Notes: generated by a model not told the origin, from the sequence alone. 64,000 nt of DNA from Dehalococcoidia bacterium (GCA_963663025.1 OY760073.1:1897354-1961353); one strand, 5' to 3'. Positions 5,181-24,985 are shown, counted from the stretch's first letter. Translations and numbers: made by a program.

Positions 5181-5209
5181 TTGACAGTCAAAATGCCCTT
5201 TGCTAGCAT
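5181..5209 (+). promoter_or_regulatory. sigma70-like promoter of the hopanoid cluster
   Basis: TTGACA (5181-5186) - 17 nt - TAGCAT (5204-5209) in the AT-richer gap upstream of the polyprenyl synthase. Confidence 0.5.
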
Positions 5210-6370: not shown

Positions 6371-6392
6371 ACGAGAAGCAAAGGGTGGTCAG

Positions 6393-7457: not shown

Positions 7458-7494
7458 GTCTATAGCAAGGCCCCAGAGAGGAAGGCTGAAGCTT

Positions 7495-8220: not shown

Positions 8221-8258
8221 AATGACTGGTCCACTCGGACTTGGGAGGTGTTACGGGG

Positions 8259-9242
8259 ATGGTGGTCCTGGTAACGGGAGCTTCCGGATTCATCGGCGCA
8301 AATGTGGCACGCAGCTTCCTGGAACGTGGCTACCAGGTAAGGGCGCTGGTGAGGAAGGAGAGCAACACCCTTGCCCTCCAGGGAACGAGCATCGAGCTGG
8401 CATATGGTGACCTGCTCGACCGGGACTCGGTTGCTCGGGCTCTCCAGGGCTGTGAAGCCCTCATCCACTGTGCGGCGCTCTACACCTTCTGGGCCCGAGA
8501 CCCTGCTCCCATTTATGAGGCAAATGTCGGTGGGACGAGGTTGGTGTTGGAAGAAGGAATGAAGGCCGGAGTGGAAAAGTGCGTCTATACCAGCACCGTC
8601 TCCACGATTCACGCACCTGCGGACAGGCCCGGCGTCGAGGATGACTGGCCGGCGGAAGACGAGATGATAGGACACTACAAGAGGTCCAAGCACCGCGCGG
8701 AGGTGGTTGCGCGCAGGATCGGCGACGAGGGACTTCCCGTCGTGATTGTGAACCCCACGGCTCCCGTGGGTCCCTGGGATGTAAAACCCACGCCTACCGG
8801 GCGCATAGTGCTGGACTTCATTCGCCGGCGGGTGCCTGCCTGCATCGATACAGGAATGAACGTAGTCGATGTGGAAGATGTGGCCCTTGGCCATGTCCTT
8901 GCATTGGAGAAGGGGGCTCCGGGAGAAAGATACATCCTCGGGAATGCCAACCTGACCCTCAGGCAGATGTTCGGGATGTTGGAGGATGTATCGGGGGTCC
9001 CTGCCCCACGCTGGGATCTACCCATGTGGGTGGCTGTGGGCGCAGCGTACGTGGACAACTTCATCGAAGGCGGCCTGATGAGAAGGGAACCGGCTATTCC
9101 CCTGGAAGGGGTGAACGTGGCCCGTAAGCCGGTCTATGTGAAATGTGACAAGGCATCCCAGGAGCTGGGAATGCCGCAGAGGCCCGTAGGGGAAGCCTTG
9201 GAGAAAGCGGTGGGCTGGTTCAGGGCCCACAGTTACGCCTGA
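8259..9242 (+). CDS. hpnA: hopanoid-associated NAD-dependent sugar epimerase
   Basis: VLVTGASGFIGANVARSFLERGYQVRALVR Rossmann motif, YxxxK (YKRSK); GGAGG 10 nt upstream of ATG 8259; ORF open from TTG 8241. Confidence 0.75.
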   Translation: MVVLVTGASGFIGANVARSFLERGYQVRALVRKESNTLALQGTSIELAYGDLLDRDSVARALQGCEALIHCAALYTFWARDPAPIYEANVGGTRLVLEEGMKAGVEKCVYTSTVSTIHAPADRPGVEDDWPAEDEMIGHYKRSKHRAEVVARRIGDEGLPVVIVNPTAPVGPWDVKPTPTGRIVLDFIRRRVPACIDTGMNVVDVEDVALGHVLALEKGAPGERYILGNANLTLRQMFGMLEDVSGVPAPRWDLPMWVAVGAAYVDNFIEGGLMRREPAIPLEGVNVARKPVYVKCDKASQELGMPQRPVGEALEKAVGWFRAHSYA

Positions 9243-9279
9243 GGTCGAATTGGACCTTAGTTCCGGGGAAAGGACGAGT

Positions 9280-11364
9280 ATGCCTGTTGCTCCTGTGTTG
9301 ACAAGGAATATGGTGGATACGGAGCTAACCGAAGCCATCAAAAAGTCCCAGGACTACCTGCTTTCCATCCAACATCCCGAGGGGTACTGGTGGGGCGAGC
9401 TGGAATCCAATCCGACAATGGAAGCGGAGTACCTGCTCTTGACCTACTTCCTGGGTGCGGTTGACAAGGAGCGCTGGAGCAAGCTGGCAAACTACATCCT
9501 CCAGAGGCAACAGGACGACGGATCCTGGGGACAGTACTACGAAGCCCCGGGCGACGTGAGCACCTCGGTGGAGTGCTACTTCGCCCTCAAGCTGGCGGGA
9601 ATATCCCCGGAGCGCCCGGAGATGCGGAAAGCCCGCGAGTTTATCCTGTCAAAGGGCGGGGTGCCTGAGGTTAGAGTGTTTACCAAGATCTGGCTGGCCC
9701 TGTTCGGCCAGTGGGACTGGAAGGGCACTCCAACGATGCCCCCGGAGCTTATGTACCTACCAACCTGGGCCCCCTTCAACATCTACCAGTTCTCCAGCTG
9801 GGCGCGGGCCACAATCGTCCCAATGACCATCATCCTCACCAACAAGCCCTGCAAAGCTGTCCCTGAGTGGGCATCCATTCAAGACCTTTATCCCGCCGAT
9901 TGGACCGAAGACAACTATAAGCTCCCCAAACCCAAGGAGCTTTTTAGCTGGCGCCGTGCCTTCTATTACGTGGACATGGTAATCAAGGCCTACCAGGCTC
10001 TCCCCTTCAAGCCTGGTCGGAAGCGGGCACTGCGGAAGATCGAGGAATGGACCGTTGATCACCAGGAAGCGGATGGCTCCTGGGGGGGCATACAGCCCCC
10101 CTGGGTCTATTCCCTGATTGCCCTTCACCATCGGGGATACTCCCTGGACCACCCCGTAATCAAGAAGGGCCTGGAGGGGTTCGAGCGCTTTGCAATCGAG
10201 GACGAGACCACCTGGAGGGTCCAGGCCTGCGTCTCGCCTGTTTGGGATACATGCCTCGTTCAGATTGGCCTGCTGGACTCGGGCCTGGCTCCGAGCCACC
10301 CTGCGGTACAGGCATCCACAAAATGGCTGGTCGAGGAACAGGTGCACTCAGGTGGTGACTGGCAGGTAAACGTCAAGGACGTGGAGCCTGGGGGATGGGC
10401 CTTTGAGTTCGCCAACGACAACTACCCTGACGTGGACGATGCCGCCGAGGTCATCATTGCCCTGAACATGGCCCCCATGGAACGGGAAGATGACGAAACT
10501 CGGAAGCAGAAAGCTATCGAAAGAGGCGCCCGTTGGATGCTTGCGATGCAGTGCTCAAACGGAGGCTGGGCTGCATTCGACAAGGACAACGATAAGAGCC
10601 TTCTCTCAAAGATACCCTTCAGCGATTTCGGTGAGGCCCTGGACCCTCCCAGTGTCGATGTTGCTTCCCACGCAGTGGAAGCGCTGGCAAAGCTGGGCTA
10701 CACAAGGGACGATCCGGCCATTGATCGGGCCTACAAGTACATTCTGGCCGAGCAGGAGGAGGAAGGTCCCTGGTTCGGTAGGTGGGGCGTTAACTACATA
10801 TACGGAACAGGGGCGGTCCTTCCGGCCCTGGAGGCCATCGGGGAGGACATGCATCAGCCCTACGTTAGTCGAGCGGTTGAGTGGCTGATATCCCACCAGA
10901 ACGACGACGGCGGCTGGGGCGAGAGCTGTGACTCCTACGTCGATGAGGCCTCATGGGGAAAGGGACCCAGCACTCCCTCTCAGACTGCCTGGGCTCTTAT
11001 GGCCCTTATGGCAGCGGGAGAGACTGACCACATCGCAACCCAAAACGGGGTCCACTACCTGATAACCACGCAGAACGACGACGGTACCTGGGAAGAACCT
11101 TATTACACAGGCACGGGCTTCCCGGGCTACGGCGTGGGCCGGAGGCTCAAGGGACTTCCCAAGCCCGGTGAATCCGGGTACCAGGGCGCGGAAATGGGTG
11201 CAGGGTTCATGATCAAGTACCACAGCTATCGCAACTGCTGGCCTCTCATGGCGTTGGGGCGCTTCCGCAACATGACACACCTGCCCCCGGTAATCCTGGG
11301 GGCGAATGGCACGAATGGCTCCAGCCCTGCAGGCTTCGGGAAACCTGGTGAATCAAAGGGATAG
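9280..11364 (+). CDS. shc: squalene-hopene cyclase
   Basis: Multiple QW repeats (e.g. QQDDGSWG, HQNDDGGWG, TQNDDGTWEE), catalytic DVDDAAEV (DxDD); ATG 9280 with GAAAGGA upstream, ORF open from 9250. Confidence 0.95.
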   Translation: MPVAPVLTRNMVDTELTEAIKKSQDYLLSIQHPEGYWWGELESNPTMEAEYLLLTYFLGAVDKERWSKLANYILQRQQDDGSWGQYYEAPGDVSTSVECYFALKLAGISPERPEMRKAREFILSKGGVPEVRVFTKIWLALFGQWDWKGTPTMPPELMYLPTWAPFNIYQFSSWARATIVPMTIILTNKPCKAVPEWASIQDLYPADWTEDNYKLPKPKELFSWRRAFYYVDMVIKAYQALPFKPGRKRALRKIEEWTVDHQEADGSWGGIQPPWVYSLIALHHRGYSLDHPVIKKGLEGFERFAIEDETTWRVQACVSPVWDTCLVQIGLLDSGLAPSHPAVQASTKWLVEEQVHSGGDWQVNVKDVEPGGWAFEFANDNYPDVDDAAEVIIALNMAPMEREDDETRKQKAIERGARWMLAMQCSNGGWAAFDKDNDKSLLSKIPFSDFGEALDPPSVDVASHAVEALAKLGYTRDDPAIDRAYKYILAEQEEEGPWFGRWGVNYIYGTGAVLPALEAIGEDMHQPYVSRAVEWLISHQNDDGGWGESCDSYVDEASWGKGPSTPSQTAWALMALMAAGETDHIATQNGVHYLITTQNDDGTWEEPYYTGTGFPGYGVGRRLKGLPKPGESGYQGAEMGAGFMIKYHSYRNCWPLMALGRFRNMTHLPPVILGANGTNGSSPAGFGKPGESKG

Positions 11365-11365
11365 C

Positions 11366-11494
11366 ATGAGGACCCCGCTATACTGCTTGCAGGCGGAAGG
11401 GACTATACACGTCGGCACCCGTCAGAGTATCTTCCTGATAGAGCTGGACCATCCCCGATCCAGGGAAATACTGGCGCAAATAGTCGGGGAATAA
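11366..11494 (+). CDS. possible 42-aa small ORF between shc and hpnC
   Basis: ATG one base after shc stop; MRTPLYCLQAEGTIHVGTRQSIFLIELDHPRSREILAQIVGE*; no homology recognised. Confidence 0.2.
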   Translation: MRTPLYCLQAEGTIHVGTRQSIFLIELDHPRSREILAQIVGE

Positions 11495-11502
11495 GGACCG
11501 AC

Positions 11503-12471
11503 GTGGACGAGGCCCGCACAATCCCCGGTAATGCTGTCTCTCTAGAAGATGCCTTCCGGTACTGCGAGCGGTTGGCAAAGACCCACTACGAGAACTTTAC
11601 TGTGGGCTCTTTTCTCATACCCAAGGCCCTGCGCAGACATGTTCATGCCGTCTACGCTTACTGCCGCTGGGTCGATGACCTGGGTGACGAGCCCTACGAG
11701 CCTCTGGTGGAGTCCCTCGCCGGGGCAAACTGGATGCATGAACAGGCCCGGTCCGATAGCCAGCCCCTGGGACCCCCCCAGCGTATGGCACTCCTGGATA
11801 GATGGGAGGAGGAGCTGGAAGCATGCTTCACCGGCATTCCGACCCACCCGGCTATAATTGCTCTCCAGGACACCGTTCGAGCCTTTGACATCCCCAGGGA
11901 ACCCTTCCTTAAGCTGATAGAAGCCAATCGTATGGAGCAGCAGGTTTCCCGTTATTCCACCTACGAGGACCTCCTGTTCTACTGCGACCACTCCGCAAAC
12001 CCTGTGGGTCACCTGTTTCTATACCTGTTCGGTTACAGCGACAAAAGTATGCGAGAGCTCTCCGACCACACCTGCACAGCCCTCCAGCTCACCAACTTCT
12101 GGCAGGATGTGCACCGGGACTTCGAGATAGGTCGCATCTATCTGCCCCTGGAAGACTTGGAGAGGTTCGAATACACCGAAGCCGAGCTTTCCCAGCGCGT
12201 CGTCAATCAGAATTTTCGAGACCTTATGGCCTTCGAGGTGCAGCGGGCGGAAGACCTGTTCCAGCGCGGACTGCCGTTGGTGGATATGCTGGAGGGAAAG
12301 GCCAAGACCGATGTTGCCCTGTTCACCAAGGGCGGGATGGCTGTCCTAGATGCCATAAAGAACCAGGAGTACGACGTTCTGTCCCGCAGGCCCGCCCTGT
12401 CACGATGGAAAAAGGCGCGCCTGTTTCTGTCCACATGGGCAAAGATGACTTGGCGTGCATCCGCCGCCTGA
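11503..12471 (+). CDS. hpnC: squalene synthase-family enzyme HpnC (hydroxysqualene synthase-like)
   Basis: Squalene/phytoene synthase family, Asp-rich YCRWVDDLGDE; first of the hpnC-hpnD-hpnE triad by order. Confidence 0.8.
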   Translation: MDEARTIPGNAVSLEDAFRYCERLAKTHYENFTVGSFLIPKALRRHVHAVYAYCRWVDDLGDEPYEPLVESLAGANWMHEQARSDSQPLGPPQRMALLDRWEEELEACFTGIPTHPAIIALQDTVRAFDIPREPFLKLIEANRMEQQVSRYSTYEDLLFYCDHSANPVGHLFLYLFGYSDKSMRELSDHTCTALQLTNFWQDVHRDFEIGRIYLPLEDLERFEYTEAELSQRVVNQNFRDLMAFEVQRAEDLFQRGLPLVDMLEGKAKTDVALFTKGGMAVLDAIKNQEYDVLSRRPALSRWKKARLFLSTWAKMTWRASAA

Positions 12472-12516
12472 CTTTCGGACATCCGCCAGCATGCCACGCC
12501 CCGCGGGATATACACG

Positions 12517-13377
12517 ATGAGCGAGCTGACTGACGCCTACGAAGAATGCCGCCGGATCACCTTCCGCGAGGCCAAGAACTTCTACTACGCCTTCATCACC
12601 CTTCCTCGCCGGAAACGCTACGCAATCTACGCAGCCTATGCCTTCTGCCGAATCTGCGATGACATTGCCGACGGCGACCAGGACCCCGACGCCAGGCTGG
12701 AAAGCCTGCAAGATGTACGGGGAGACCTTGCTCATACCTACGCAGGACGGGCACAAAACCCTGTGTACCTCGCCCTCGCCGATGCTGCATCCACCTACGA
12801 CATCCCCGAGCAGCACTTCCAGGATGTCATCACCGGCGTGGAGATGGACCTCACCAAGACCGCTTACCAGGACTTCGATGAGCTGTACACCTACTGCTAC
12901 CACGTGGCATGCGTAGTGGGCCTGATCTGCCTTCAGGTCTTCGGGTACTCCAACGACAAGGCCAGGGACTACGCCGTGGACCTGGGCCTCGCTATGCAGC
13001 TGACCAACATTCTGAGGGATGTGAAGGAGGACCTGGAGCGTGGGCGGGTGTACATACCCCAGGACGAGTTGGAACGCTTTGGGTACACCCTCGAGGACCT
13101 GCAGGCCGGCACCATGAACGAACCATTCGCGGACCTGATGGCTTTCCAGGTAGAGCGGGCGCGCCGCCGATTCGACGAGGGCTTCAAGCTGCTCCCCCTT
13201 CTCTCCGCCAGATCCAGGGGATGTCCCGCAGTCCTCGGCGCCCTGTACCGTCGCATCCTCGATAAGATAGAGTCGAAGGGCTACGACGTCTTCCAAGAGC
13301 GGGTGAGCCTGGGCCGGGGCGAGAAGGGCTTGGTAACCCTCCGCACCTGGGTAAAGAGCCTGCTGCCCTCCTTATGA
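12517..13377 (+). CDS. hpnD: presqualene diphosphate synthase HpnD
   Basis: Squalene/phytoene synthase family, FCRICDDIADG and NILRDVKEDLERGRVY blocks; second of triad. Confidence 0.8.
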   Translation: MSELTDAYEECRRITFREAKNFYYAFITLPRRKRYAIYAAYAFCRICDDIADGDQDPDARLESLQDVRGDLAHTYAGRAQNPVYLALADAASTYDIPEQHFQDVITGVEMDLTKTAYQDFDELYTYCYHVACVVGLICLQVFGYSNDKARDYAVDLGLAMQLTNILRDVKEDLERGRVYIPQDELERFGYTLEDLQAGTMNEPFADLMAFQVERARRRFDEGFKLLPLLSARSRGCPAVLGALYRRILDKIESKGYDVFQERVSLGRGEKGLVTLRTWVKSLLPSL

Positions 13378-14804
13378 GCCTCCCCAACAGCCGCGTGCCC
13401 CACATCATCGTCCTGGGAGGAGGCTTGGCCGGTATTTCGGCAGCCTGCCATCTCCTGGAGCGAGGCTGCCGAGTTACCCTGGTGGAGAAGAGGCCCTACC
13501 TCGGCGGAAGGACCTTCTCCTTCGGACACCATCCCCATCAAGAGACAGAGCCTGCCTTCCGGGTGGACAACGGCCAGCACGTCTTCCTGGGCTGCTGCAC
13601 CAGCTACATCGACCTGCTCAAGAAGCTGGGCTCCCACGCCCAAGCCTATCTCCAGCCCAACCTCCACGTGGAGATTCGGCGGGTAGGGGAGCGGGGGAAG
13701 CCCACGAAGGCAAGCACACTTTCTTCTTTTCCCTTCCTCCCGGCGCCCTTCCACATCCTGCCTTCTTTCCTCCGCTACTCCCACCTGGGCATCGGGGACC
13801 GCCTCAGGGTGATCTACGGCCTGCTGTGCGTCAGGCTCACCCGCCGCAGTCGCCCCGCCCTTGAAGCCCAAAGCTTCCACCAGTGGCTCAAGGCCCACGG
13901 GCAGTCTGACAATGCGATATCCAGGTTCTGGGACATCATCATCGTTGCCACCCTGAACGACGATTCCAGGAACGTCAGCGCATCCATGGCTCTCATGGTG
14001 TACCAGGAAGGTGTGCTGAAGGGCCGGAACAGCCCCAACATAGGCTTCTCCCGAGTCGGACTCTCCGAGTTGATGGGGCACCCCGCCAAGGACCTTATCC
14101 TGGCGGCGGGAGGCAGCGTCCTCTCCGGCAGGAAGGTCTCCCGGCTCATCGTCGAAGACACGGCCGAGGGGTCCGAGAAGACGGTCGCCGGCATTGAACT
14201 GACCGACGGCGAGACCCTGCGCGGGGACATCTACGTTTCCGCCCTCCCCTTCGGCGACCTCGGCTCCATCCTGCCCCCGGACCTTACCGATTCCCCCTTC
14301 TTCAGCGGCGTCCGCGAGCTGGCCACCGCCCCCATCGTGAACGTGCACATCTGGTATGATCGACAGGTTATGGACACCACTGGCGAACCCTTTGTGGCCT
14401 TCCTGGACAGCCCCCTGCAGTGGGTATTCGACAAGAGCAGAATGCAGGGCGCGGACCCCTCCGGGCCGCTAGGGCAGTACCTCTGCGTGTCCATAAGCAG
14501 TGCCTGGGACTACATGGATATGCCCAAGGCGGACGTCAGGCGCATCGTGCTGGCGGAGATGGAATCTGCCTTCCCCCTGGCAGCCCAAGCCCAGGTCAGG
14601 GACGTTTTGGTTATCAAGTCCCCGGCGACCTTCCGCTGCACCCCCGGCTCAGCAGCCCTCAGGCCATCGACCATCACCCCCATCAAGAACCTTTTCCTGG
14701 CTGGGGACTGGACCGACACCGGCTGGCCCTCCACCATGGAGGGCGCGGTGCGCAGCGGTGCAGCCGCCGTCGACGCCATCGAATCAGCGGTGCCCCTTGG
14801 ATAG
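13374..14804 (+). CDS. hpnE: FAD-dependent hydroxysqualene dehydroxylase HpnE
   Basis: ATGA overlap with hpnD; dinucleotide-binding IIVLGGGLAGISAA; amine-oxidase-like C terminus (FLAGDWT). Confidence 0.8.
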   Translation: MSLPNSRVPHIIVLGGGLAGISAACHLLERGCRVTLVEKRPYLGGRTFSFGHHPHQETEPAFRVDNGQHVFLGCCTSYIDLLKKLGSHAQAYLQPNLHVEIRRVGERGKPTKASTLSSFPFLPAPFHILPSFLRYSHLGIGDRLRVIYGLLCVRLTRRSRPALEAQSFHQWLKAHGQSDNAISRFWDIIIVATLNDDSRNVSASMALMVYQEGVLKGRNSPNIGFSRVGLSELMGHPAKDLILAAGGSVLSGRKVSRLIVEDTAEGSEKTVAGIELTDGETLRGDIYVSALPFGDLGSILPPDLTDSPFFSGVRELATAPIVNVHIWYDRQVMDTTGEPFVAFLDSPLQWVFDKSRMQGADPSGPLGQYLCVSISSAWDYMDMPKADVRRIVLAEMESAFPLAAQAQVRDVLVIKSPATFRCTPGSAALRPSTITPIKNLFLAGDWTDTGWPSTMEGAVRSGAAAVDAIESAVPLG

Positions 14805-15798
14805 GGCAGCCCTCATCCTGGCGCCCTTCTCCGAGGATGCCCTCGACCGCCTGGGCAAGCACGTCCGCGTCTCCTACGAAAGCTGGCTGGACACGGGTGA
14901 GCTGCTCTCCCCCGACGACATGGCCCGGCGGATCAACGACGATGGCCTCAGCATCCTGGTGGTGGAAGCCGACTACGTGTTCGAAGAGGTGTTCGCCGAC
15001 ACCCCCGGCCTGGAGTTTCTCGGCGTGTGCCGGTCCAGCCTGGGACACATCGACGTCGATGCGGCCACCGCACACGGCGTGCTTGTGGTGAACACGCCGG
15101 GTCGCAACGCCAACGCTGTCGCCGAGCTTACCCTGGGCCTGATGCTCTCCCTCGCCAGGGGCATCCCCTCCTCGGACCGCTACGTGTCCGAAGGCCGGTG
15201 GGAGGACCCCGTCGGTCCCTACACCCACATGCGGGGCGACGAGCTTGGAGGCAAGACCCTGGGCCTTCTAGGTTTCGGCGCCATCGGCCGCGCTGTGAGC
15301 AAACGGGCCCGCAGCTTCGGCATGAAGGTCATCGCCTACGACCCCTACCTGGGCGCTCCCGGAACAAGGCTGGGAGGAGCTCGCCTGGAAAGCCTGGAGA
15401 CCCTCCTGGAGGCGTCCGACTACCTGTCCGTCCACACTCCAGACACCGGCGAAACCCGCGGCCTCGTAAACAAGGACAACGCAAGCCTCCTGAAGCGGGG
15501 GGTGTACATAATCAATACCGCTTCCTACTGGGCCATCGACGAAGACGCCCTGGTGGACGCCCTCCGCTCGGGCCAGGTGGGCGCCGTCGCCATGGATGTT
15601 CACCGCACCCACCCCATATCGCCCAACAGCCCCCTGCTCGCCATGGACAACGCCCTGCTGACACCCCACATCGGCGGGGCCACCGCCGAGACCATCCAGC
15701 GCCACTCCATGATGATGGTCGAGGATATTCGCAGGTACCTTCGCGGGCACAGGCCCCGACGCTTGGTCAACAACTCGGTCTGGGGGCAGGTTGGCTAA
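14797..15798 (+). CDS. D-isomer-specific 2-hydroxyacid dehydrogenase (PGDH-like)
   Basis: TTG 14797 overlaps hpnE stop by 8 nt; GLLGFGAIGRAV NAD motif, catalytic-domain blocks. The 14500 start in the ORF track is an off-frame overlap with hpnE. Confidence 0.8.
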   Translation: MDRAALILAPFSEDALDRLGKHVRVSYESWLDTGELLSPDDMARRINDDGLSILVVEADYVFEEVFADTPGLEFLGVCRSSLGHIDVDAATAHGVLVVNTPGRNANAVAELTLGLMLSLARGIPSSDRYVSEGRWEDPVGPYTHMRGDELGGKTLGLLGFGAIGRAVSKRARSFGMKVIAYDPYLGAPGTRLGGARLESLETLLEASDYLSVHTPDTGETRGLVNKDNASLLKRGVYIINTASYWAIDEDALVDALRSGQVGAVAMDVHRTHPISPNSPLLAMDNALLTPHIGGATAETIQRHSMMMVEDIRRYLRGHRPRRLVNNSVWGQVG

Positions 15799-17287
15799 CC
15801 CCATCCTGGCCCTGGATGTGGGCACCAGCTCCTGCCACGTCCTGTTGGCCGACAACGAAGGCTCCTGCCTGTCATCAGCCTCCTCCCCCATCGCCTACCA
15901 CACCCCCAGGGACGGCCCCGAGCTGGCCCGGGAGTTCGACCCCGCCCAGGCGCTGTCCACCCTCGGAAGCCTGGTCTCCCAAGCGCTGAGCGAGGCCGGA
16001 GTCTCCCCGGGGAGCATCGATTCGATAGCCATCACCAGCCAGCGCCAGGGACTTGTGCTCCTGGACTCCGCCGGCGTCGAGCTGGCCTGCACGCCCAACA
16101 TCGACCTCAGGGCCGTGTTCGAAGGGGCAGCCATCGACGAGCAGCGGGGCGAGCAGGTATACCGCACCACCGGGCACACCCCCTCCCTCATCCTGGCCCC
16201 GGCCCGCCTCGCCTGGTTCCAGAAACATGAGCCTGGCATCTTCCAGCGTATCGACGCCGTCCTGTCCGTCGCGGGCTGGCTCATGTACCATTTGACGGGA
16301 CGGAAGCTGGGCGAGCGGTGCATGGAGGGAGAGGCCGGCCTGCTGAACATCTCCTCCGGCGCCCGCTGCCACCGGTTGCTGGACAGCCTGGGCTTCCCCC
16401 GGGGCCTCCTGCCCTCAATGCCGGGCAGGGGGGCTCCTCACAGGACCGTCTTCGGCCCCCTGGCCCAGGAGTGGGGCCTGAAGAAAGGAGCCGAGGTCAT
16501 ACTGGCCGGCCCCGACACCCAGTGCGGCCTCCTGGGCATGGGCCTCACCCAGCCCGGCCAGGTCGGCGCCCTCCTCGGCTGGAGCGGCGCCGTCCAGGCC
16601 ATCACCTCCGATCCCTGCCTACATCCCGACCGAGCCACCTGGGCAGGGCGCTACCTGCTTGACGACCTCTGGGTGGCCGAAGCCAACCTTGGCGAGGTTG
16701 GCTCCTCCTACGCCTGGCTCAAGGACCTTCTGCTGGGCCCAGACGCCCCCATAAGCGAAGCCGACGACCTGGCGGCAGCAGCCCCCGAGGACGGTTCCGG
16801 CATCCTCGCCTGCCTGGGACCCAGCCCCGAAAGCGCCTTCACCGCCGGACTCCGCCGGGGAGGCCTCCTCTTTCCCACTCCTTTCGCATACCAACAGCCC
16901 ACAGCCGCCGGCCTTTTCAGGGCCTCCCTGGAAAACGTCGCCTTCAGCGCCAAGGCCAACCTGGCCTGCCTGGACCAGCTCACCGGCCGTACCACGGACC
17001 TCCTTCATATAGGAGGGGGGATGGCCCGCAGCGACGTCCTGGCCTCCATCCTGGCCGATGTCCTGGGCATCCCCGTCCGCCGCACCCGCACACCCCAGGC
17101 AACCGCCCGGGGCGCCGTCCTCCGCGCCATCCTTCAAACCCGCCCCGATATCACGCCCCATCAGTTGACAGAGATTGCGGGCGCAGACCATGATGATATC
17201 GTCCCCAGATCGCCTGCAGTCGTGGCCCGCTACGAGAGCGCCTACCGGGAATGGCTGGACGTGCAGCAGCGCCTCGACTGGGAGTAA
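15791..17287 (+). CDS. FGGY-family carbohydrate kinase
   Basis: TTG 15791 overlaps upstream stop by 8 nt; N-terminal LALDVGTSSCHVLL actin-like ATPase motif, C-terminal HIGGGMARSDV block. Confidence 0.8.
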   Translation: MANPILALDVGTSSCHVLLADNEGSCLSSASSPIAYHTPRDGPELAREFDPAQALSTLGSLVSQALSEAGVSPGSIDSIAITSQRQGLVLLDSAGVELACTPNIDLRAVFEGAAIDEQRGEQVYRTTGHTPSLILAPARLAWFQKHEPGIFQRIDAVLSVAGWLMYHLTGRKLGERCMEGEAGLLNISSGARCHRLLDSLGFPRGLLPSMPGRGAPHRTVFGPLAQEWGLKKGAEVILAGPDTQCGLLGMGLTQPGQVGALLGWSGAVQAITSDPCLHPDRATWAGRYLLDDLWVAEANLGEVGSSYAWLKDLLLGPDAPISEADDLAAAAPEDGSGILACLGPSPESAFTAGLRRGGLLFPTPFAYQQPTAAGLFRASLENVAFSAKANLACLDQLTGRTTDLLHIGGGMARSDVLASILADVLGIPVRRTRTPQATARGAVLRAILQTRPDITPHQLTEIAGADHDDIVPRSPAVVARYESAYREWLDVQQRLDWE

Positions 17288-17295
17288 GCCCAGAT

Positions 17296-17997
17296 ATGGA
17301 TAGAGGGAGGCCCTTGACCCTCAGGCCCGAAGAACGGAACCTCCTCTGGGATGTGGTCATGGAGCTGGCCAAGGAAGGCTTGGTCACCGGCTCCAACGGC
17401 AACGCCAGCATGCGCCTGGACGGCGACACCCTCCTCATTACGCCCACAGGTCGTTCCTACCGTGCCATGACCCCCGAAGACCTCCTCATAATCGACATGG
17501 AAGGCGGGCCCGTCGAGGGCGACAGCATCCCCTCCTCCGAGACCGCCCTCCACCTGGCCATCTACCAAGCCCGCCCCGACGCCGGAGCCGTCATCCACAC
17601 CCACTCCCCCTACGCCACCATCGCCGCCGTCGCCGCCCTCGAGATCCCTCCGCTGGTGGATGAGGTCGTATATAAGGTTGGGGGAAGCATCCCCGTCGCC
17701 GACTACGCCTTCCCCTCCACCGAAGAGCTGGCCTCCAACACCGTCGCCACTCTGGGCGAGGGCAACGCCGTCCTCTTACGCAATCACGGGCTGGTCGGCT
17801 TGGGCCGCAACCCCTGGGAAGCCTTCGACATGTGCCAGCTTGTGGAGAGGCTGGCCCACACCTTCATCTATGCAACCCTGCTTGGAAAGGCCATCCCCAT
17901 TCCCGACGAGTACGTCGAGCTGGAGCAGGAGCTGTTCCGCATGAAGCGCCGGGCCTCCGTCGCCTGGACCCCGGCCCGTAAAATAACGTTCTGGTGA
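17296..17997 (+). CDS. class II aldolase/adducin-family protein (fuculose-P aldolase / ribulose-5-P epimerase-like)
   Basis: GSNGNASMR, IHTHSPYAT, LLRNHGLV blocks; ATG 17296 nine nt after kinase stop. Confidence 0.8.
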   Translation: MDRGRPLTLRPEERNLLWDVVMELAKEGLVTGSNGNASMRLDGDTLLITPTGRSYRAMTPEDLLIIDMEGGPVEGDSIPSSETALHLAIYQARPDAGAVIHTHSPYATIAAVAALEIPPLVDEVVYKVGGSIPVADYAFPSTEELASNTVATLGEGNAVLLRNHGLVGLGRNPWEAFDMCQLVERLAHTFIYATLLGKAIPIPDEYVELEQELFRMKRRASVAWTPARKITFW

Positions 17998-18006
17998 AAA
18001 GGAAAC

Positions 18007-18375
18007 ATGGTTAAGATTCCCGCCTTCCTGCTGCGCAGGGTTTACGTTAAGGGGAGCCTCACCAACGTGGACGACGGCTTCCAGTTCCAGCTTCTCAACT
18101 CCCTGGGCTCGGGCTATGCCCGGCGCATGCTCCCCCTCACCCTCGACGGCCGGGAGATAGCCATGGAGCAGTGCACATTCCCGTTGAACGACGGCGCATG
18201 CTCCTTTGACCGGGTGTCCAACGACCTGCCCTTCACCCTGGATGTGAACAAGACCGTCACCATTACCGTCCACGGCGAGACCCTGGACGCCAACCCCCAC
18301 ACCATCGTCCTCAACTTCGAGGTTGCCGGACTGGGCGAGCTCACCCTGGACTTCACCGACACCCCCGCCTCCTGA
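18007..18375 (+). CDS. hypothetical 122-aa protein
   Basis: Tightly packed between aldolase and epimerase, GC3-rich; no family recognised. Confidence 0.5.
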   Translation: MVKIPAFLLRRVYVKGSLTNVDDGFQFQLLNSLGSGYARRMLPLTLDGREIAMEQCTFPLNDGACSFDRVSNDLPFTLDVNKTVTITVHGETLDANPHTIVLNFEVAGLGELTLDFTDTPAS

Positions 18376-18386
18376 AGCCGCCAGCC

Positions 18387-19331
18387 ATGAACGTAGCGGT
18401 TACCGGGGCATCGGGCTTCCTGGGGCGGAACCTCCTGCCCGTCCTCAGCGCCGACCCGTCCATCGAAAGCATCATAGCCCTGGACATGGCGCCCGCAGGC
18501 CCCGACCTACCCAAGGTCGATCACCGCCGGGTGGACCTTGCCTCCCTGCCCGCCGACGCCTTCGCCAAGGACCGGGTCGATGCCGTCCTCCACCTAGCCT
18601 TCCACCTGCGCACCGACCGCCGGGGCCGCCTGAGCCAAGACAACCTGGCCGGCACCCGGGCCCTCCTGGAAGCCTGCCATAGCGCCAGCGTGCCCAACAT
18701 CATCTTCCTCAGCAGCCACACCATCTACGGCGCCCATGCCCACAACCCTGTGCCCATAACTGAGGACACCCCAGCGGACCCACTGCCCGGCTTCGGCTAC
18801 GCCGAGGACAAGGCCGCCTGCGAGGAGCTTATGCTGGAGTACGCCGAAACCCACCCCGACGCCACCGTCGCCATCCTCCGCTCCTGCATGGTGCTCGGCC
18901 CGGGCAGCGCAGGCAGATACCCCGCCCGCACCCTCTTCAAGCCTGTCTTGCTGCGCCTCATGGGCTATGATCCCCTTCTACAATTCGTGCATGTGGAGGA
19001 CCTGACCCGCCTTCTCCACCGGCTTGTCACCCAGCCTGTGGCGGGCGCCTTCAACGTGGCAGGCGACGGCGCCATCCCCTACAGCCGGGCCGCCCGCATC
19101 GCCTCCAGCCGCTTGCTGCCCCTGCCCGTGGGCTTGGCGTATCCCCTGGTCGGCCTGACCTGGCGCCTGGGGCTCCAGGGCGACTCCCCTGCCATCGGCC
19201 TCGAGTACATCCGCCACCCCATCCTCCTGGACACCGCCAAGCTCACCCACGCCACCGGCTTCCGGTTCTCCCACTCCTCCGAGTCCGCCCTCCGCGCCGC
19301 CTTCCCCAGTTCGTCTTCCCCCCTCCCTTGA
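18387..19331 (+). CDS. NAD-dependent epimerase/dehydratase (SDR)
   Basis: VAVTGASGFLGRNLL Rossmann motif, YxxxK (YAEDK); last codons lie in repeat-like sequence. Confidence 0.8.
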   Translation: MNVAVTGASGFLGRNLLPVLSADPSIESIIALDMAPAGPDLPKVDHRRVDLASLPADAFAKDRVDAVLHLAFHLRTDRRGRLSQDNLAGTRALLEACHSASVPNIIFLSSHTIYGAHAHNPVPITEDTPADPLPGFGYAEDKAACEELMLEYAETHPDATVAILRSCMVLGPGSAGRYPARTLFKPVLLRLMGYDPLLQFVHVEDLTRLLHRLVTQPVAGAFNVAGDGAIPYSRAARIASSRLLPLPVGLAYPLVGLTWRLGLQGDSPAIGLEYIRHPILLDTAKLTHATGFRFSHSSESALRAAFPSSSSPLP

Positions 19332-19334
19332 TGC

Positions 19335-20040
19335 AACTGCCCGTTCGCCCTTCGAGAGCCTCAGCACGAACGGGGCCCGCCGTCATTGCGGCCCCCCACC
19401 GTCATTGCGGCGTAGGCCGCAATCCAGGAAACACAGGCTGGGGAGCAAGCCTCCCATACCGTCCCTCCTGCCCATTCGCCCTTCGAGAGCCTCAGGGCGA
19501 ACGGCAGTATAAGGCCCACGCCCCCCATTCGTGCTGAGGGGACTCGAAGCATGAACGGGGGCCGTCGTCATTGCGGCGTAGGCCGCAATCCAGGAAAGTC
19601 AGGCCGGAAACAGCTGGGTGTGACAAAGATGCCCCGCCGTCATTGCGGCGTAGGCCGCAATCCAGGAAAGTCAGGCCGGGGACAGGCCGCCCATACCGTC
19701 CCCCTGCCGTTCCCCCTTCGAGAGCCTCAGGGCGAACGGCTGTGCAGGCCCACGCCCCCCGTTCATGCTGAGCACCCCCTTCCGTTCGTGCTGAGGCTCT
19801 CGAAGCACGAAGGGAGGGTGAAGGACGAAGCCATCCGCCGTCATTGCGGCGTAGGCCGCAATCCAGGACGGAGCATTGCCGGGTCCCGGGATGGCTCCTT
19901 TATCCCCGTAAGTGCCATATTGAGGAACTTGGCCCAATTCCAGGTCTAGGGTTTCCTGGATTGCGGCCTCCGCCGCAATGACGACTAGCGTGGAGGACGT
20001 CCCTGCCGTTCACCCTTCGAGAGCCTCAGGGCGAACGGAC
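19335..20040. repeat. REP/BIME-like mosaic array 1
   Basis: Modules A (about 5 copies) and B in both orientations; track ORFs here (e.g. 19551..19949) are repeat translations. Confidence 0.9.
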
Positions 20041-20053
20041 AATCCCGCTGTCG

Positions 20054-20083
20054 TTGACGAAAGATTGCCTCGGCTACTATAGT
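20054..20083 (+). promoter_or_regulatory. sigma70-like promoter of the small-protein/protease pair
   Basis: TTGACG (20054-20059) - 18 nt - TATAGT (20078-20083). Confidence 0.45.
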
Positions 20084-20136
20084 GGACTTGAGGCGCCTTA
20101 ATGCCCTGAACCAGGGGAGAGCGCACTCCCACACAA

Positions 20137-20150
20137 GGTCCTCGAGGACC
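20137..20150. promoter_or_regulatory. perfect 14-bp palindrome, operator-like
   Basis: GGTCCTCGAGGACC between the promoter and ATG 20179. Confidence 0.35.
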
Positions 20151-20178
20151 GAAAAGAGTAGGCGATGAGAAGGGGAAA

Positions 20179-20466
20179 ATGGCTACAGGACCGAGTCCAC
20201 GCCAAGTCATAGAAGAGATGGGTGGGGCCAAAGCGGTCCTTGCGGGGTTTACTGAGTTCTATAACAGGATGAACGCCCTGGATGCCAAGCGATCCCAGCT
20301 TACCGAAGAGTACCCCGATAAGTGGATCGCCTTGCACAACGGAGAGGTAAGTGTCAGCTCCGATTCCCTGGAAGAACTCCTTGGAGAAATGGACCGCCTC
20401 GGCATACCAAGGAAAGAGTCCATCGTCGAATTTATGGAAACCGAGCGCAGAAACCTGGTTCTTTAG
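20179..20466 (+). CDS. small protein resembling DUF5678-type proteins
   Basis: 95 aa, good RBS (GAGAAGGGGAAA-ATG); C-terminal EYPDKWIALHNGEVSVSSDSLEELL pattern. Confidence 0.6.
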   Translation: MATGPSPRQVIEEMGGAKAVLAGFTEFYNRMNALDAKRSQLTEEYPDKWIALHNGEVSVSSDSLEELLGEMDRLGIPRKESIVEFMETERRNLVL

Positions 20467-20478
20467 CAGGCCTGCCTC

Positions 20479-20919
20479 TTGATTAGCGGAACCTTTGACC
20501 CAACGTACAGACGGCCCTACGTCCGGGGCCGTCTTGCTTTACCCGGCCTCCACCTCGATGACTACATCTACTTCCTCGTGGATACTGGGGCAGACACCAC
20601 CACGATCTATCCCCGCGACGCGCTGCGCATGGGCATCGACTACGACAAGCTCTCTCCCGTGGAGGTCCCCCAGTACGGGGTCGGAGGCATCGAATATGCC
20701 TCTGAGGAACACGCAAACATCTTTTTCCAAGATGGCCGCTCTATCCGCACTTACACCATCCTGGTATCCGTTCCTAGGCCAACGGAACACAATATTCGCC
20801 TCCCCTCTCTCTTGGGCCAGGACATCATCCAGTACTGGAGAATGGTCCACGACAAACGCCGGGACCGCTTGACCTTCACCGTTCGCCGGGCAGACCTGAC
20901 CCTGCGCAGCCACCAATGA
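20479..20919 (+). CDS. retropepsin-like (clan AA) aspartic protease, single domain
   Basis: 146 aa; FLVDTGADTTTI catalytic DTGA at residues 35-38 and SLLGQDIIQYW near the C terminus, parallel to retroviral LLDTGADDTV / IIGRNLL. Confidence 0.75.
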   Translation: MISGTFDPTYRRPYVRGRLALPGLHLDDYIYFLVDTGADTTTIYPRDALRMGIDYDKLSPVEVPQYGVGGIEYASEEHANIFFQDGRSIRTYTILVSVPRPTEHNIRLPSLLGQDIIQYWRMVHDKRRDRLTFTVRRADLTLRSHQ

Positions 20920-20930
20920 CCCCCTACTTC

Positions 20931-20987
20931 TCCGAGGCCGCCCTCCGCGCCGCCTTCCCCGACCCATCTTCCCCCCTCCCTTGATGC
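20931..20987 (+). repeat. 57-nt duplicate of the 3' end of the epimerase gene (partner 19278..19334)
   Basis: TCCGAG-N-CCGCCCTCCGCGCCGCCTTCCCC-N7-CTTCCCCCCTCCCTTGATGC present at both sites, including the TGA stop. Confidence 0.85.
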
Positions 20988-21522
20988 TCTTTTTTCGTCC
21001 CCCTCCCTTGATGGGAGGGGATTAAGGGGAGGGTGATACCCAGCCCCGAGCCTCCCCTAATTTTGCTCCCCCTCACCCCAACCCTCTCCCTCCAGGGGCG
21101 AGGGAGTATTGGGAGGGTGACCCGCCCGCTAGAGAAGGCCCCCCTGCCCGTTCGCCCTGAGGCTCTCGAAGGGTGAACGGCTGTACAGGCCGCCGCTGCC
21201 CCCCCGTTCGTGCTGAGACTGTCCTGAGGCTCTCGAAGGGGGGACTCGAAGCATGAACGGGGGGGGGCCGCAATCCAGGACGGAGCATTGCCGGATCCCG
21301 GGATGGCTCCTTTCCCTCAGTGACTACTACAGTGGAGACCTGACGCAGTCCCGGAGTTTCCTGGATTGCGGCCTACGCCGCAATGACGAATAGCGTGGAG
21401 GACGTCCCTGCCGTTCACCCTTCGAGAGCCTCAGGGCGAACGGCTGTACAGGCCGCCGCTGCCCCCCGTTCGTGCTGAGCCTGTCCTGAGGCCCTCGAAG
21501 GAGGAAATCGAAGGGGAACGGG
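20968..21522. repeat. REP/BIME-like mosaic array 2
   Basis: Modules D, C, B, A, B. Confidence 0.9.
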
Positions 21523-21572
21523 CGGAGCCATAACGCACGGCAGGTGTCAGGGTGTCCCTACATCCCAGCCGG

Positions 21573-21581
21573 TGCTATAAT
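21573..21581 (+). promoter_or_regulatory. extended -10 promoter (TGcTATAAT)
   Basis: TGCTATAAT 41 nt upstream of ATG 21622; no good -35. Confidence 0.4.
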
Positions 21582-21621
21582 CGGGCGCCAGACCCAATAC
21601 CCTTCCTTACAGGAGTACGCC

Positions 21622-22488
21622 ATGACCACCAACAAGAAAGCCACCACCGTCGTCCGCGAAGCCTTCTTCCGCAAGGGCAGGCCCATCTTCGGCATCAGCG
21701 CCCCCACTCCCTTCGGCGCCAAGCTCCTCGAGCGCGCCGGCTTCGAGTACCTATTTATCGGCGGCGATGCCACCATGGCCCCCATGCTGGACATCCAGGG
21801 CACCGGCGAGATCGACATGACCACCTCCGTCATGCTCGGCAGAACCTTCGCCAACGCCGTCTCCATTCCCATCGTCATGGACGTTGACGTGGGCTTCGGC
21901 GGCCCCACCCAGGTCGCCAAGATCGTCCGCGAGTACATCCGCAACGGCGTCGCAGGCATACGCATCGAGGACGGCATCGTCCGCTACCTCCGCGACAAGG
22001 TCCAGGGCAGCGTCCACGACGAGGTGACCTCCGCCGAGGAGATGGTGCTCAAGGTCGAGGCCGCCTCCGACGCCCGCAACGAGCTGGACCCCGACTTCCT
22101 CATCATCGCCCGCAGCGACTGCCACTTCGCCGAGGGCTACCGGGGCGTCGAGGAGGTCATCGAGCGGGCCAAGGCCTACAACAAGGCAGGCGCCGACGTG
22201 CTATTCACCACTAGCGCCGTCAAGGCCCAGGGCGACGTCAAGGACCACATCCGCACCGTCGTCCAGGGCGTCGCCCCCATGCCCGTCTCCATCCCCGGCA
22301 ACGGCCTGGATGTGGACGAGGGGGCCGAGCTGGGCGTGGCCGAGATACGCTACCCCTACGAGCTCCTCCGGGCCATGCACTCGGCCGGGTGGGACCACAT
22401 CGTGGACATCAAGAACCGGGGCGTCGCCGCCATCAACGACTGGCGGGAGCGCAACAAGGACAACCCCTACCGCGCCAACCAGGCCTGA
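21622..22488 (+). CDS. isocitrate lyase / PEP mutase family protein (methylisocitrate lyase-like)
   Basis: AGGAG 6 nt upstream of ATG 21622; FEYLFIGGD, VMDVDVGFGG, GIRIEDG blocks. Confidence 0.8.
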   Translation: MTTNKKATTVVREAFFRKGRPIFGISAPTPFGAKLLERAGFEYLFIGGDATMAPMLDIQGTGEIDMTTSVMLGRTFANAVSIPIVMDVDVGFGGPTQVAKIVREYIRNGVAGIRIEDGIVRYLRDKVQGSVHDEVTSAEEMVLKVEAASDARNELDPDFLIIARSDCHFAEGYRGVEEVIERAKAYNKAGADVLFTTSAVKAQGDVKDHIRTVVQGVAPMPVSIPGNGLDVDEGAELGVAEIRYPYELLRAMHSAGWDHIVDIKNRGVAAINDWRERNKDNPYRANQA

Positions 22489-22491
22489 TGT

Positions 22492-23220
22492 CTTTATCCC
22501 CCTCACTCCAACCCTCTCCCGCCAGAGGAGAGGGGGCCCCAATATCTCCCCCCTCCCTTGATGGGAGGGGACTAAGGGGAGGGTGAAACACTGAAGGGAG
22601 CCATCCTGCTAGCCGGCAGCGCTCCGTCCTGGATTGCGGCCTCCGCCGCAATGACGAACAAGGTGGAGGGCGCCCATACCGTCCCACCTGCCCGTTCACC
22701 CTTCGAGGGCCTCAGGGCGAACGGACAGTATAAGGCCCACGCCCCCCGTTCGTGCTGAGCACCCCCTTCCGTTCGTGCTGAGGCTCTCGAAGCACGAAGG
22801 GACAAGCCGCCCCTACATTAGAGCCATCCTGGAACCCGGCAGCGCTCCGTCCTGGATTGCGGCCTTCGCCGCAATGACGAATAGCGTGGAGGCCGCCCAT
22901 ACCGTCCCACCTGCCCGTTCACCCTTCGAGAGCCTCAGGACAGGCTCAGCAGGAACGGGCCCCACCGTCATTGCGGCGTAGGCCGCAATCCAGGAAAGTC
23001 AGACCGGGAACAGCTGGTTGTGACGACCCCCCCACCGTCATTGCGGCGTAGGCCGCAATCCAGGAAAGTCAGACCGGGAACAGCTGGTTGTGACGACCCC
23101 CCCACCGTCATTGCGGCGTAGGCCGCAATCCAGGAAAGTCAGACCGGGAACAGCTGGGTATGACGAAAACCCCCCACCGTCATTGCGGCGTAGGCCGCAA
23201 TCCAGGAAACCTAGGTCGGG
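22492..23220. repeat. REP/BIME-like mosaic array 3 (includes 70-bp tandem)
   Basis: Modules C-D-A-B-B-A-B then four tandem module-A units. Confidence 0.9.
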
Positions 23221-23251
23221 GCCAGGGGCGTGGGGATGACGGGGCAGGGAA

Positions 23252-24689: not shown

Positions 24690-24977
24690 GTGTGGTTGTC
24701 AACTATGAGCAGGCGCAGGAAGAACGGAGACCTGACCGACTATGAGTTGGCTTGGGTTGTGCGGGAAGTTTCCAAGCTCACCAACAAGAGTTTCCGTGAG
24801 ATCGGAGAGAACCTTGCCAACGAAATGTCCGACAATGAGGATGTTCTCTCCGAGGATGACTTCGAGCTAGGGAACAACATCGCTGCCACGCTGGAAACGC
24901 TTTGGCCCAGAGAGGGATTATGGCAGCCTGGGCCGAATGCAGAGCGGGCATTGAAGCTAATCCAACGGGTGCTGTAG
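24690..24977 (+). CDS. IS accessory ORF (hypothetical)
   Basis: 95 aa (probably from ATG 24705), ends 9 nt before the transposase ATG; weak RBS. Confidence 0.4.
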   Translation: MWLSTMSRRRKNGDLTDYELAWVVREVSKLTNKSFREIGENLANEMSDNEDVLSEDDFELGNNIAATLETLWPREGLWQPGPNAERALKLIQRVL

Positions 24978-24985
24978 GAGCTCAC

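Follow-up and report, generated by a model that had tools for sequence, protein, structure and literature searches.

A conserved five-gene module next to the squalene-synthesis genes of Dehalococcoidia

What are five genes for soluble enzyme families doing at the end of a triterpenoid operon? The question arises in a 64,000-nucleotide stretch of DNA from a Dehalococcoidia bacterium (GCA_963663025.1 OY760073.1:1897354-1961353), called the window below. Here a co-directional, plus-strand string at 5264-19331 runs pps-hpnH-hpnG-like-hpnA-shc-hpnC-hpnD-hpnE and continues into genes for a D-isomer-specific 2-hydroxyacid dehydrogenase (2HADH), an FGGY-family sugar kinase, a class II aldolase, a 122-residue protein (ORF122) and an extended SDR. 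An earlier note on this DNA proposed that the last five genes act on the ribosyl side chain of hopanoids, and pointed out that the step from ribosylhopane to bacteriohopanetetrol (BHT) has no assigned gene. The latter agrees with a 2026 review, in which that step is either non-enzymatic or unassigned. As set out below, these genes make up an accessory module that is conserved in, and specific to, Dehalococcoidia and is not tied specifically to the genes of the C35 side chain. No published description of the block was found in the literature searched.

Conservation and company of the block in Dehalococcoidia

Relatives of the locus were collected with a kinase homologue search and then a scan that took one genome for each GTDB species; this gave 166 confirmed relatives, and the best 80 were analysed. 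All 13 window proteins were searched against these 80 loci (numbered with the prefix L), the locus open reading frames (ORFs) were clustered, and junction distances were measured; genes are called adjacent at a gap of 150 nt or less, and the neighbourhood is taken as 10 kb. The best 80 of the 166 are metagenome-assembled genomes of Dehalococcoidia, Chloroflexota or SAR202 (one is labelled "uncultured bacterium"), and their kinases are 35-89% identical to that of the window. The kinase homologue search found the module in no lineage outside Dehalococcoidia/Chloroflexota.

The five genes, described in the earlier note as translationally coupled to hpnE, are a tightly coupled extension of the triterpenoid operon, and this holds well beyond the window. 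Chance is far from sufficient to explain the arrangement, whose order is repeated in 80 species-level genomes. Within the block, the 2HADH and kinase genes are adjacent in 72 of 73 loci (30 nt or less in 71 of the 73, mostly as 5-8-nt overlaps), and ORF122 and the SDR gene in all 71 (30 nt or less in 69, typically 4-7 nt); the kinase-aldolase and aldolase-ORF122 pairs are adjacent in 59 and 62 of 72 loci, respectively. The kinase and ORF122 are the constant core of the module. Moreover, among the 73 loci with a 2HADH gene, 63 have the block adjoining the last squalene-synthesis gene (at 150 nt or less); the upstream neighbour of the block in these is hpnE in 24, hpnD in 28 and an interposed NUDIX gene in 11. 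By estimate, 40 of 69 loci have no more than 30 nt between the squalene-synthesis gene and the block, frequently with an overlap, over kinase identities of 35-89%. Stop and start codons overlapping by 3-10 nt at hpnE or hpnD are seen repeatedly, in many lineages. For comparison, shc and a UPF0047 gene are adjacent in 30 of 47 loci, and a nucleoside hydrolase gene and sufB in only 1 of 25. The point where the squalene-synthesis genes meet the block is among the best-conserved junctions of the region, better kept than those inside the hopanoid cluster, which argues against pure hitch-hiking.

Which part of the hopanoid pathway does the block accompany? In 51 of the 80 loci, squalene-synthesis genes, shc and hpnH all lie within 10 kb, and five more have the squalene-synthesis genes and shc, so that shc is nearby in 56/80. 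The outcome that the earlier note thought would refute its proposal, orthologues mainly in genomes without shc/hpnH, is therefore not what is seen. However, the more specific link to side-chain chemistry fares less well. Fifteen loci with full flanks carry squalene-synthesis genes (hpnD or hpnCDE) and the block with no shc or hpnH within 10 kb; in four the block stands alone with no triterpenoid gene nearby (for example L069, where it lies beside serS and a RelA/SpoT-like gene), and the remaining five loci are truncated on the left. In one genome, OY761144.1, the two sets are split: hpnD, the block and a nucleoside hydrolase gene are at 1.94 Mb (L067), and hpnH-shc is at 2.86 Mb (L081), about 0.9 Mb apart. 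Three further Dehalococcoidia contigs (L082-L084) carry a compact hpnH-hpnG-(hpnA)-shc cluster; neither a squalene-synthesis gene nor the block lies within 10 kb of it. In such split clusters, therefore, the side-chain genes stay beside the cyclase gene, and it is the squalene-synthesis genes that the block accompanies. Eight loci have the order pps-UPF0047-hpnC-hpnD-hpnE-NUDIX-block and are without hpnH, hpnG, hpnA and shc; L059 alone among them retains an HpnG-like gene, which sits beside pps and hpnCDE. Three of the eight are complete chromosomes with proteins represented in the collection that was searched, and none of the three occurs among the 120 best shc clusters (down to 60% identity) or among the members of the 10 of these clusters that were inspected. 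The block is not restricted to loci carrying shc and hpnH, and upon rearrangement it is not tied to hpnH/hpnG.

Neither transporter nor regulator genes are found inside the module. In some loci other genes are inserted into it (among them toxin-antitoxin genes and genes for a CoA transferase, an alpha/beta hydrolase and a classical SDR), but these are unrelated and differ between loci, and a hidden sixth core gene or isomerase was rejected on this ground. Across the loci the upstream neighbours include nuo genes, TenA, 5-formyltetrahydrofolate cyclo-ligase and DUF1800, and the downstream neighbours suf genes, IlvD, TldD/PmbA, a UbiE-like methyltransferase and DUF362. No methylerythritol phosphate or mevalonate pathway genes, transporters or regulators are among these upstream and downstream neighbours.

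Two further observations concern the triterpenoid genes themselves. In 37 of the 73 loci with hpnD (L006-L009, L011, L013-L018, L020, L021 and others) only an HpnD-type gene is present, with no hpnC or hpnE within 10 kb; these proteins score 271-294 bits against an HpnD cut-off of 278.6, and many of the operons have shc. As to the conversion of presqualene diphosphate to squalene in these operons, the enzyme may be bifunctional, or hpnC and hpnE may be located elsewhere. A role for the block as a substitute for HpnC/HpnE was rejected, as the block is equally present in hpnCDE operons. In the split-cluster genome, a cytochrome P450 gene lies directly downstream of shc in convergent orientation (L081:12146-13474, minus strand), and may be a different candidate for hopanoid or triterpenoid tailoring.

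Gene string and proteins of the module

The string in the window is made up of the following features, given with the profile-search evidence for each.

5264-6370, + strand: polyprenyl (FPP/GGPP-type) diphosphate synthase (pps), first gene of the string; NCBIfam polyprenyl synthase matches
6393-7457, + strand: hpnH, adenosylhopane synthase (radical S-adenosylmethionine [SAM] enzyme); TIGR03470, 421 bits, cut-off 225
7495-8220, + strand: HpnG-like nucleosidase/phosphorylase (PNP_UDP_1 family); TIGR03468, 88.6 bits, under the cut-off of 187
8241-9242, + strand: hpnA, hopanoid-associated extended SDR; TIGR03466, 412 bits, cut-off 368
9250-11364, + strand: shc, squalene-hopene cyclase; TIGR01507, 783 bits
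11396-11491, + strand: remnant of a UPF0047 (YjbQ-like) gene; tblastn match to the C-terminal 32 residues, 56% identity
11503-12471, + strand: hpnC; TIGR03464, 322 bits, cut-off 250
12517-13377, + strand: hpnD; TIGR03465, 305 bits, cut-off 279
13374-14804, + strand: hpnE; TIGR03467, 382 bits, cut-off 283
14797-15798, + strand: 2HADH (SerA/glyoxylate-reductase-like); Pfam 2-Hacid_dh_C, 180 bits
15791-17287, + strand: FGGY-family sugar kinase; Pfam FGGY_N/C
17296-17997, + strand: class II (metal-dependent) aldolase/epimerase-family enzyme, FucA/DrdA-like; Pfam Aldolase_II, 183 bits
18007-18375, + strand: ORF122, 122-residue beta-sandwich protein; PF25653, 65 bits
18387-19331, + strand: extended SDR (NAD-dependent epimerase/dehydratase family), with which the string closes in this genome; Pfam Epimerase, 105 bits

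With the exception of the HpnG-like and polyprenyl synthase genes, all the genes upstream of the block exceed their own NCBIfam cut-offs. The five junctions from hpnE to the SDR gene, read from the sequence, are all 8-nt overlaps or gaps of 8-11 nt. The hpnE stop (TAG, 14802-14804) overlaps the TTG start of 2HADH at 14797 by 8 nt, and the 2HADH stop (TAA, 15796-15798) overlaps the TTG start of the kinase at 15791 by the same length. Both TTG starts are supported, since the Pfam matches set in at residues 5-6, and the alignments to orthologues at residues 1-5, with the same overlapping junctions in other genomes. The kinase stop (TAA, 17285-17287) is followed by an 8-nt spacer and the start codon of the aldolase gene (ATG, 17296), which has a GGGAG 11 nt before it; an alternative in-frame ATG lies at 17251. 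Then come a 9-nt gap between the aldolase stop (17995-17997) and the ORF122 ATG (18007), and an 11-nt gap between the ORF122 stop (18373-18375) and the SDR ATG (18387), with the SDR stop at 19329-19331. The description of one uninterrupted co-directional block from the polyprenyl synthase to 19331, joined by 8-nt overlaps and short gaps, is thus borne out by sequence and profile searches alike.

Just upstream of pps is a promoter-like site, TTGACA-17-TAGCAT, at 5181-5209. The promoter/terminator scan, whose counts are close to the shuffled expectation, placed no plus-strand terminator-like site between any two genes of the string; its two plus-strand hits in the five-gene stretch are inside coding sequence. 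Rfam searches gave no riboswitch or other element in the string, and no riboswitch upstream of stand-alone or long-gap blocks. The largest gap of the string, 139 nt from shc to hpnC, contains the UPF0047 remnant; of the 47 loci with both shc and UPF0047, 30 have the intact gene (Pfam UPF0047) between shc and the squalene-synthesis genes, adjoining shc. The tailoring genes hpnI/J/K/O/P/R were not found among the roughly 40 larger window ORFs scanned. A hydrophobicity scan found no membrane segment in any of the five module proteins, a result that does not discriminate, as the Hpn enzymes are likewise without any.

What can be said of the individual enzymes? The 2HADH scores 241 bits with its best NCBIfam model, phosphoglycerate dehydrogenase (PGDH; TIGR01327, cut-off 454), and its best PDB matches are PGDH and glyoxylate reductase (182 bits). 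It was rejected as a housekeeping SerA because of this score under the cut-off and because the gene is absent from the block in L025, L034, L040 and L042. The kinase is nearest to LsrK and XylB and is a member of neither: it scores 164 bits with the autoinducer-2 kinase model (cut-off 528), 150 with XylB (cut-off 380) and 71 with fuculokinase (cut-off 471), and its best PDB match is LsrK (5ya0, 131 bits).

The aldolase has its best solved relatives in FucA (113 bits) and PDB entry 6btd (99 bits), which we take to be the 5-deoxyribulose-1-phosphate aldolase DrdA. On FucA models it scores 113-127 bits against cut-offs of 264-400, and its top NCBIfam model is the L-ribulose-5-phosphate 4-epimerase subfamily (160 bits, cut-off 251). 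Aligned with Escherichia coli FucA, it keeps N29, T43, S71/S72/E73 and H92/H94, and the third histidine as well; the position of FucA Y113 is an aspartate, Asp122. Among 70 orthologues, its residues N36, T49, S80, E82, H101, H103, D122, E123 and H164 are each at least 95% conserved. Since the metal and phosphate residues of FucA and the Asp122-Glu123 pair are conserved, the protein is predicted to be a competent metal-dependent enzyme acting on a phosphorylated substrate, though not a canonical FucA.

ORF122 matches PF25653 ("HMG-CoA reductase N-terminal domain") and, weakly, PF19906 (C-glycoside deglycosidase [CGD] beta subunit, CGDB). Its homologues in Chloroflexota are stand-alone proteins of about 120 residues. 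An AlphaFold (AF2) model built from 41 homologues has a pLDDT of 92, and in a Foldseek search of the PDB its 15 best matches are all CGD beta subunits, including 8qvc_B, 7bvr_B and 7dnm_B (TM 0.65-0.71, probability 1.0). As modelled, then, ORF122 is shown to have the fold of a CGD beta subunit. A profile search of 1.84 billion representatives with the ORF122 domain gave 653 relatives. In some of these the domain is fused N-terminally to other enzymes: to NAD/Mn-dependent glycoside hydrolase family 4 (GH4) glycosidases in Anaerolineae (proteins P0460 and P0462), and to HMG-CoA reductase (P0463, P0465 and P0479). The domain appears to be a promiscuous accessory beta-sandwich of redox-dependent sugar or acyl enzymes. 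The gene context of a distant homologue, probably archaeal, was uninformative. A TIM-barrel (xylose-isomerase-like) alpha subunit was found neither in the window string nor in the conserved 10-kb neighbourhood of the 80 loci, and for this reason a full C-glycoside deglycosidase was rejected. ORF122 is probably an accessory subunit of the SDR encoded downstream, the two forming one two-subunit enzyme. The SDR itself has only distant GalE-like matches in the PDB (51 bits). Its TGxxGxxG motif, Ser109/110 and Y138-x3-K142 all reach 95% conservation or more across 70 orthologues; orthologue alignments show the catalytic motifs of both aldolase and SDR to be intact.

Genes for the cleavage of nucleosides and nucleotides recur around the module. 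A RihA/RihC-like nucleoside hydrolase gene directly follows the SDR gene in 30 loci (30/36 adjacent; for example L040:12939-13874), and a canonical NUDIX hydrolase gene lies between hpnE and 2HADH in 11 (for example L027:8545-9033); both are absent from the window. Judging by these neighbours, the sugar handled by the module may come from a nucleoside or nucleotide. The HpnG-like genes scored in this lineage (window 7495-8220, L006:3500-4222, L020:3721-4461, L059:4408-5211) reach 85-122 bits against the HpnG cut-off of 187, and one lineage HpnG-like protein also matches methylthioadenosine/S-adenosylhomocysteine (MTA/SAH) nucleosidase.

In the window the operon ends at a repeat-dense region, 19332-23250, directly after the SDR stop, where other genomes have the nucleoside hydrolase gene and a suf operon. 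Interspersed through the region are short palindromic repeats of two families, CGTCATTGCGGCGTAGGCCGCAATCCAGGAAA and CCGTTCGCCCTTCGAGAGCCTCAGGGCGAACGG, each in about ten or more copies and in both orientations, as well as a tandem array at 22960-23241 of four copies with a 70-72-nt period. The first and second units of the array are identical and the third is 93% identical, and a CRISPR was rejected on that pattern. No Rfam family matches the window repeats, which look like repetitive extragenic palindromes (REP) or miniature inverted-repeat transposable elements (MITE). Further downstream, at 24902-26146, is an IS6/IS240-type DDE transposase gene; with this in place of the nucleoside hydrolase gene and sufBCDSU of most related genomes, the window genome has been rearranged here.

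What the module may do

We tentatively favour, at somewhat less than an even chance, a soluble route built on the kinase and the class II aldolase, with two NAD(P) oxidoreductases, a ribose-derived substrate and co-expression with squalene synthesis. The module would share a transcript with the squalene-synthesis genes (hpnD or hpnCDE) and be coupled to them in translation. One NAD(P) oxidoreductase, either the 2HADH or the putative two-subunit SDR-ORF122 enzyme, would prepare a ribose- or pentose-derived ketose or polyol; the FGGY kinase would phosphorylate its terminal hydroxyl; the aldolase would cleave or epimerise the phosphate ester, probably giving a triose phosphate such as dihydroxyacetone phosphate (DHAP) and an aldehyde; and the second oxidoreductase would handle the leftover fragment. 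The substrate is most likely a free sugar made by the operon-encoded nucleosidases (HpnG-like protein, nucleoside hydrolase, NUDIX gene product). Release from a nucleoside is proposed because the HpnG-like, nucleoside hydrolase and NUDIX genes recur in the same operons. The link to squalene would then be one of co-regulation or carbon supply rather than of hopanoid modification.

Several findings weigh against the soluble route we favour. All five module proteins score under every curated NCBIfam equivalog cut-off. The 2HADH family normally acts on 2-hydroxy acids, and the enzyme fits a sugar-acid route better than one through a neutral ketose. There is no aldose-ketose isomerase in the operon and no isomerase family among the conserved neighbours of the loci. 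Moreover, the module is not invariant: three loci (L025, L034 and L040) have the kinase, ORF122 and SDR genes only, without 2HADH and aldolase, and four have 2HADH, kinase, aldolase and ORF122 without the SDR or squalene-synthesis genes, so the steps need not form one linear pathway. The support is all comparative and comes from one bacterial class with conserved long-range synteny. In this class unrelated neighbours can persist, as the suf genes within 10 kb downstream in 33 loci demonstrate, and the lack of shc in the three complete chromosomes is likely rather than observed.

That the module instead tailors or trims the ribose-derived C35 side chain of hopanoids seems to us unlikely. In such a route ribosylhopane or BHT would be oxidised or isomerised to the 34-keto compound, the kinase would phosphorylate this at C35, the aldolase would release DHAP and a C32 hopanoid aldehyde, and a dehydrogenase would reduce or oxidise the aldehyde. 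In its favour, ribosylhopane is formally a 5-substituted 5-deoxyribose and the solved relatives of the aldolase include 6btd; ORF122 resembles the subunit of enzymes by which sugars are removed from bulky aglycones, genes for transporters and regulators are missing from the module, the route from ribosylhopane to BHT is still without an assigned enzyme, and in the window the module shares an operon with hpnH, the hpnG-like gene, hpnA and shc (shc and hpnH being within 10 kb in 51 of the 80 loci). The proposal is weakened, however, because the block follows the squalene-synthesis genes in split genomes, persists without hpnH/hpnG nearby (the 15 loci without shc/hpnH within 10 kb, the three complete chromosomes without detectable shc, the four loci without any nearby triterpenoid gene), occurs in one class only, and includes a 2HADH, a family that requires a carboxylate substrate. 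In any case, as the kinase subfamily was found by homologue search only in Chloroflexota/Dehalococcoidia, the block cannot be the general ribosylhopane-to-BHT enzyme of BHT producers.

The opposite view, with which the earlier note qualified its proposal, is that of an unrelated sugar, sugar-acid or nucleoside catabolic operon placed here by ancestral synteny, for example a ribose/ribulose-1-phosphate or tetronate-like route to DHAP. We consider this doubtful. The enzyme families are indeed typical of soluble (phospho)sugar catabolism, four loci carry the block alone (L069, for example), the nucleoside hydrolase gene is often the next gene, and housekeeping suf genes lie downstream in the 33 loci noted above; to this extent the alternative stands. 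Its element of chance fusion does not sit well with a junction that is kept in 63-69 of 73 loci although the kinases diverge to 35% identity. The conservation of this junction far exceeds that of the one joining the nucleoside hydrolase gene to suf, and it is also greater than that of the junctions inside the hopanoid cluster. The 3-10-nt overlaps with hpnE or hpnD in many lineages also speak against it, as do the lack of a transporter or regulator gene in the module and of terminator-like sites in the intergenic gaps of the window string. By analogy with the MTA-isoprenoid shunt of Rhodospirillum rubrum, one could also imagine a salvage shunt in which 5-deoxyribose, from the 5'-deoxyadenosine of radical-SAM enzymes, is converted to 1-deoxy-D-xylulose 5-phosphate (DXP) and so feeds isoprenoid synthesis. 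The steps would be a reduction, a re-oxidation beside the methyl group, an LsrK/XylB-like phosphorylation and a 4-epimerisation by the class II aldolase-family enzyme. The genes present match exactly what this scheme would need (a kinase, a pair of oxidoreductases, an epimerase of the class II aldolase type and a nucleosidase), and it would account for the linkage to pps and the squalene-synthesis genes independently of shc; the substrates of LsrK and XylB are 1-deoxy-pentulose-like, and the top NCBIfam model of the aldolase is a 4-epimerase subfamily. It is pure conjecture nonetheless, and we rate it as very improbable: the metal ligand of the aldolase is a FucA-type Glu, not an AraD-type Asp (by our own alignment, AraD Asp120 presumably aligns to a Tyr of the window aldolase), and 2HADH enzymes are not known polyol dehydrogenases.

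A bolder claim can be drawn across these alternatives, namely a new, DHAP-shunt-like route for the ribose unit of hopanoid or radical-SAM chemistry, either from ribosylhopane/BHT to DHAP and a C32 hopanoid or from 5-deoxyribose to DXP, with the SDR and ORF122 as a new two-subunit enzyme in both cases. Both versions make chemical sense, but we think the claim improbable. What has been gained is a narrower form of the ribosylhopane-to-BHT question, given the restriction of the block to one lineage and its association with the squalene-synthesis genes. In the dark ocean and in sponges, Dehalococcoidia (SAR202 among them) rank with the most abundant bacteria, and we know of no cultured hopanoid-producing representative of the class. 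The conserved module is a lead to lipid modification, to a coupling of sugar/nucleoside salvage with isoprenoid synthesis, or to a two-subunit enzyme made of an SDR and a CGD-beta-like protein. If trimming of ribosylhopane or BHT were to prove true, it would provide a biological source, in a very abundant marine clade, for the C32 hopanols and hopanoic acids abundant in sediments.

Comparison with known systems

The nearest models are sugar-catabolic. The FucK/FucA and RhaB/RhaD pathways share with the module an FGGY kinase followed by a metal-dependent class II aldolase, and the three-His site, Glu73 and the phosphate-binding Asn/Thr/Ser residues are kept. However, the module is without a FucI/RhaA-type isomerase, has an invariant Asp-Glu pair at FucA Tyr113, and scores far under the equivalog cut-offs; it also adds two oxidoreductases and a CGD-beta-like protein, and it is embedded in a lipid operon. 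A logic like the one proposed here is found in the 5-deoxyribose/DHAP shunt (DrdK-DrdI-DrdA; MtnK-MtnA-Ald2), in which a 5-substituted ribose set free by a nucleosidase is phosphorylated and a FucA-like aldolase gives DHAP and an aldehyde; the module kinase is of the FGGY and not the MtnK/DrdK type, and no locus has a MtnA/DrdI-like isomerase gene. The tetronate pathway (DenD/LtnD, OtnI, OtnK, OtnC) likewise reaches DHAP by dehydrogenase, kinase and class II aldolase-family chemistry, but its kinase is of the DUF1537 type rather than FGGY, the module has no OtnI, and the matches are weak, with 109 bits for the OtnC model (cut-off 250) and 46 bits for the D-erythronate dehydrogenase model (cut-off 325). 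LsrK of the lsr operon is the best-scoring characterised relative of the module kinase, and the module has none of the LsrG, LsrF or lsr transporter genes.

The C-glycoside deglycosidases (DgpB-DgpC, CarB-CarC, DfgA-DfgB) have a small beta subunit of the fold predicted for ORF122, and an NAD-dependent sugar oxidoreductase is present in both systems; in the module the constant partner of ORF122 is an extended SDR instead of a TIM-barrel alpha subunit. Finally, the hpn clusters of Proteobacteria and Streptomyces have the core of hpnCDE, shc, hpnH, hpnG and hpnA in common with the window operon, and in none of those described in the literature searched is the five-gene module present. The module is a set of known enzyme families in a new conserved combination and a new genomic association.

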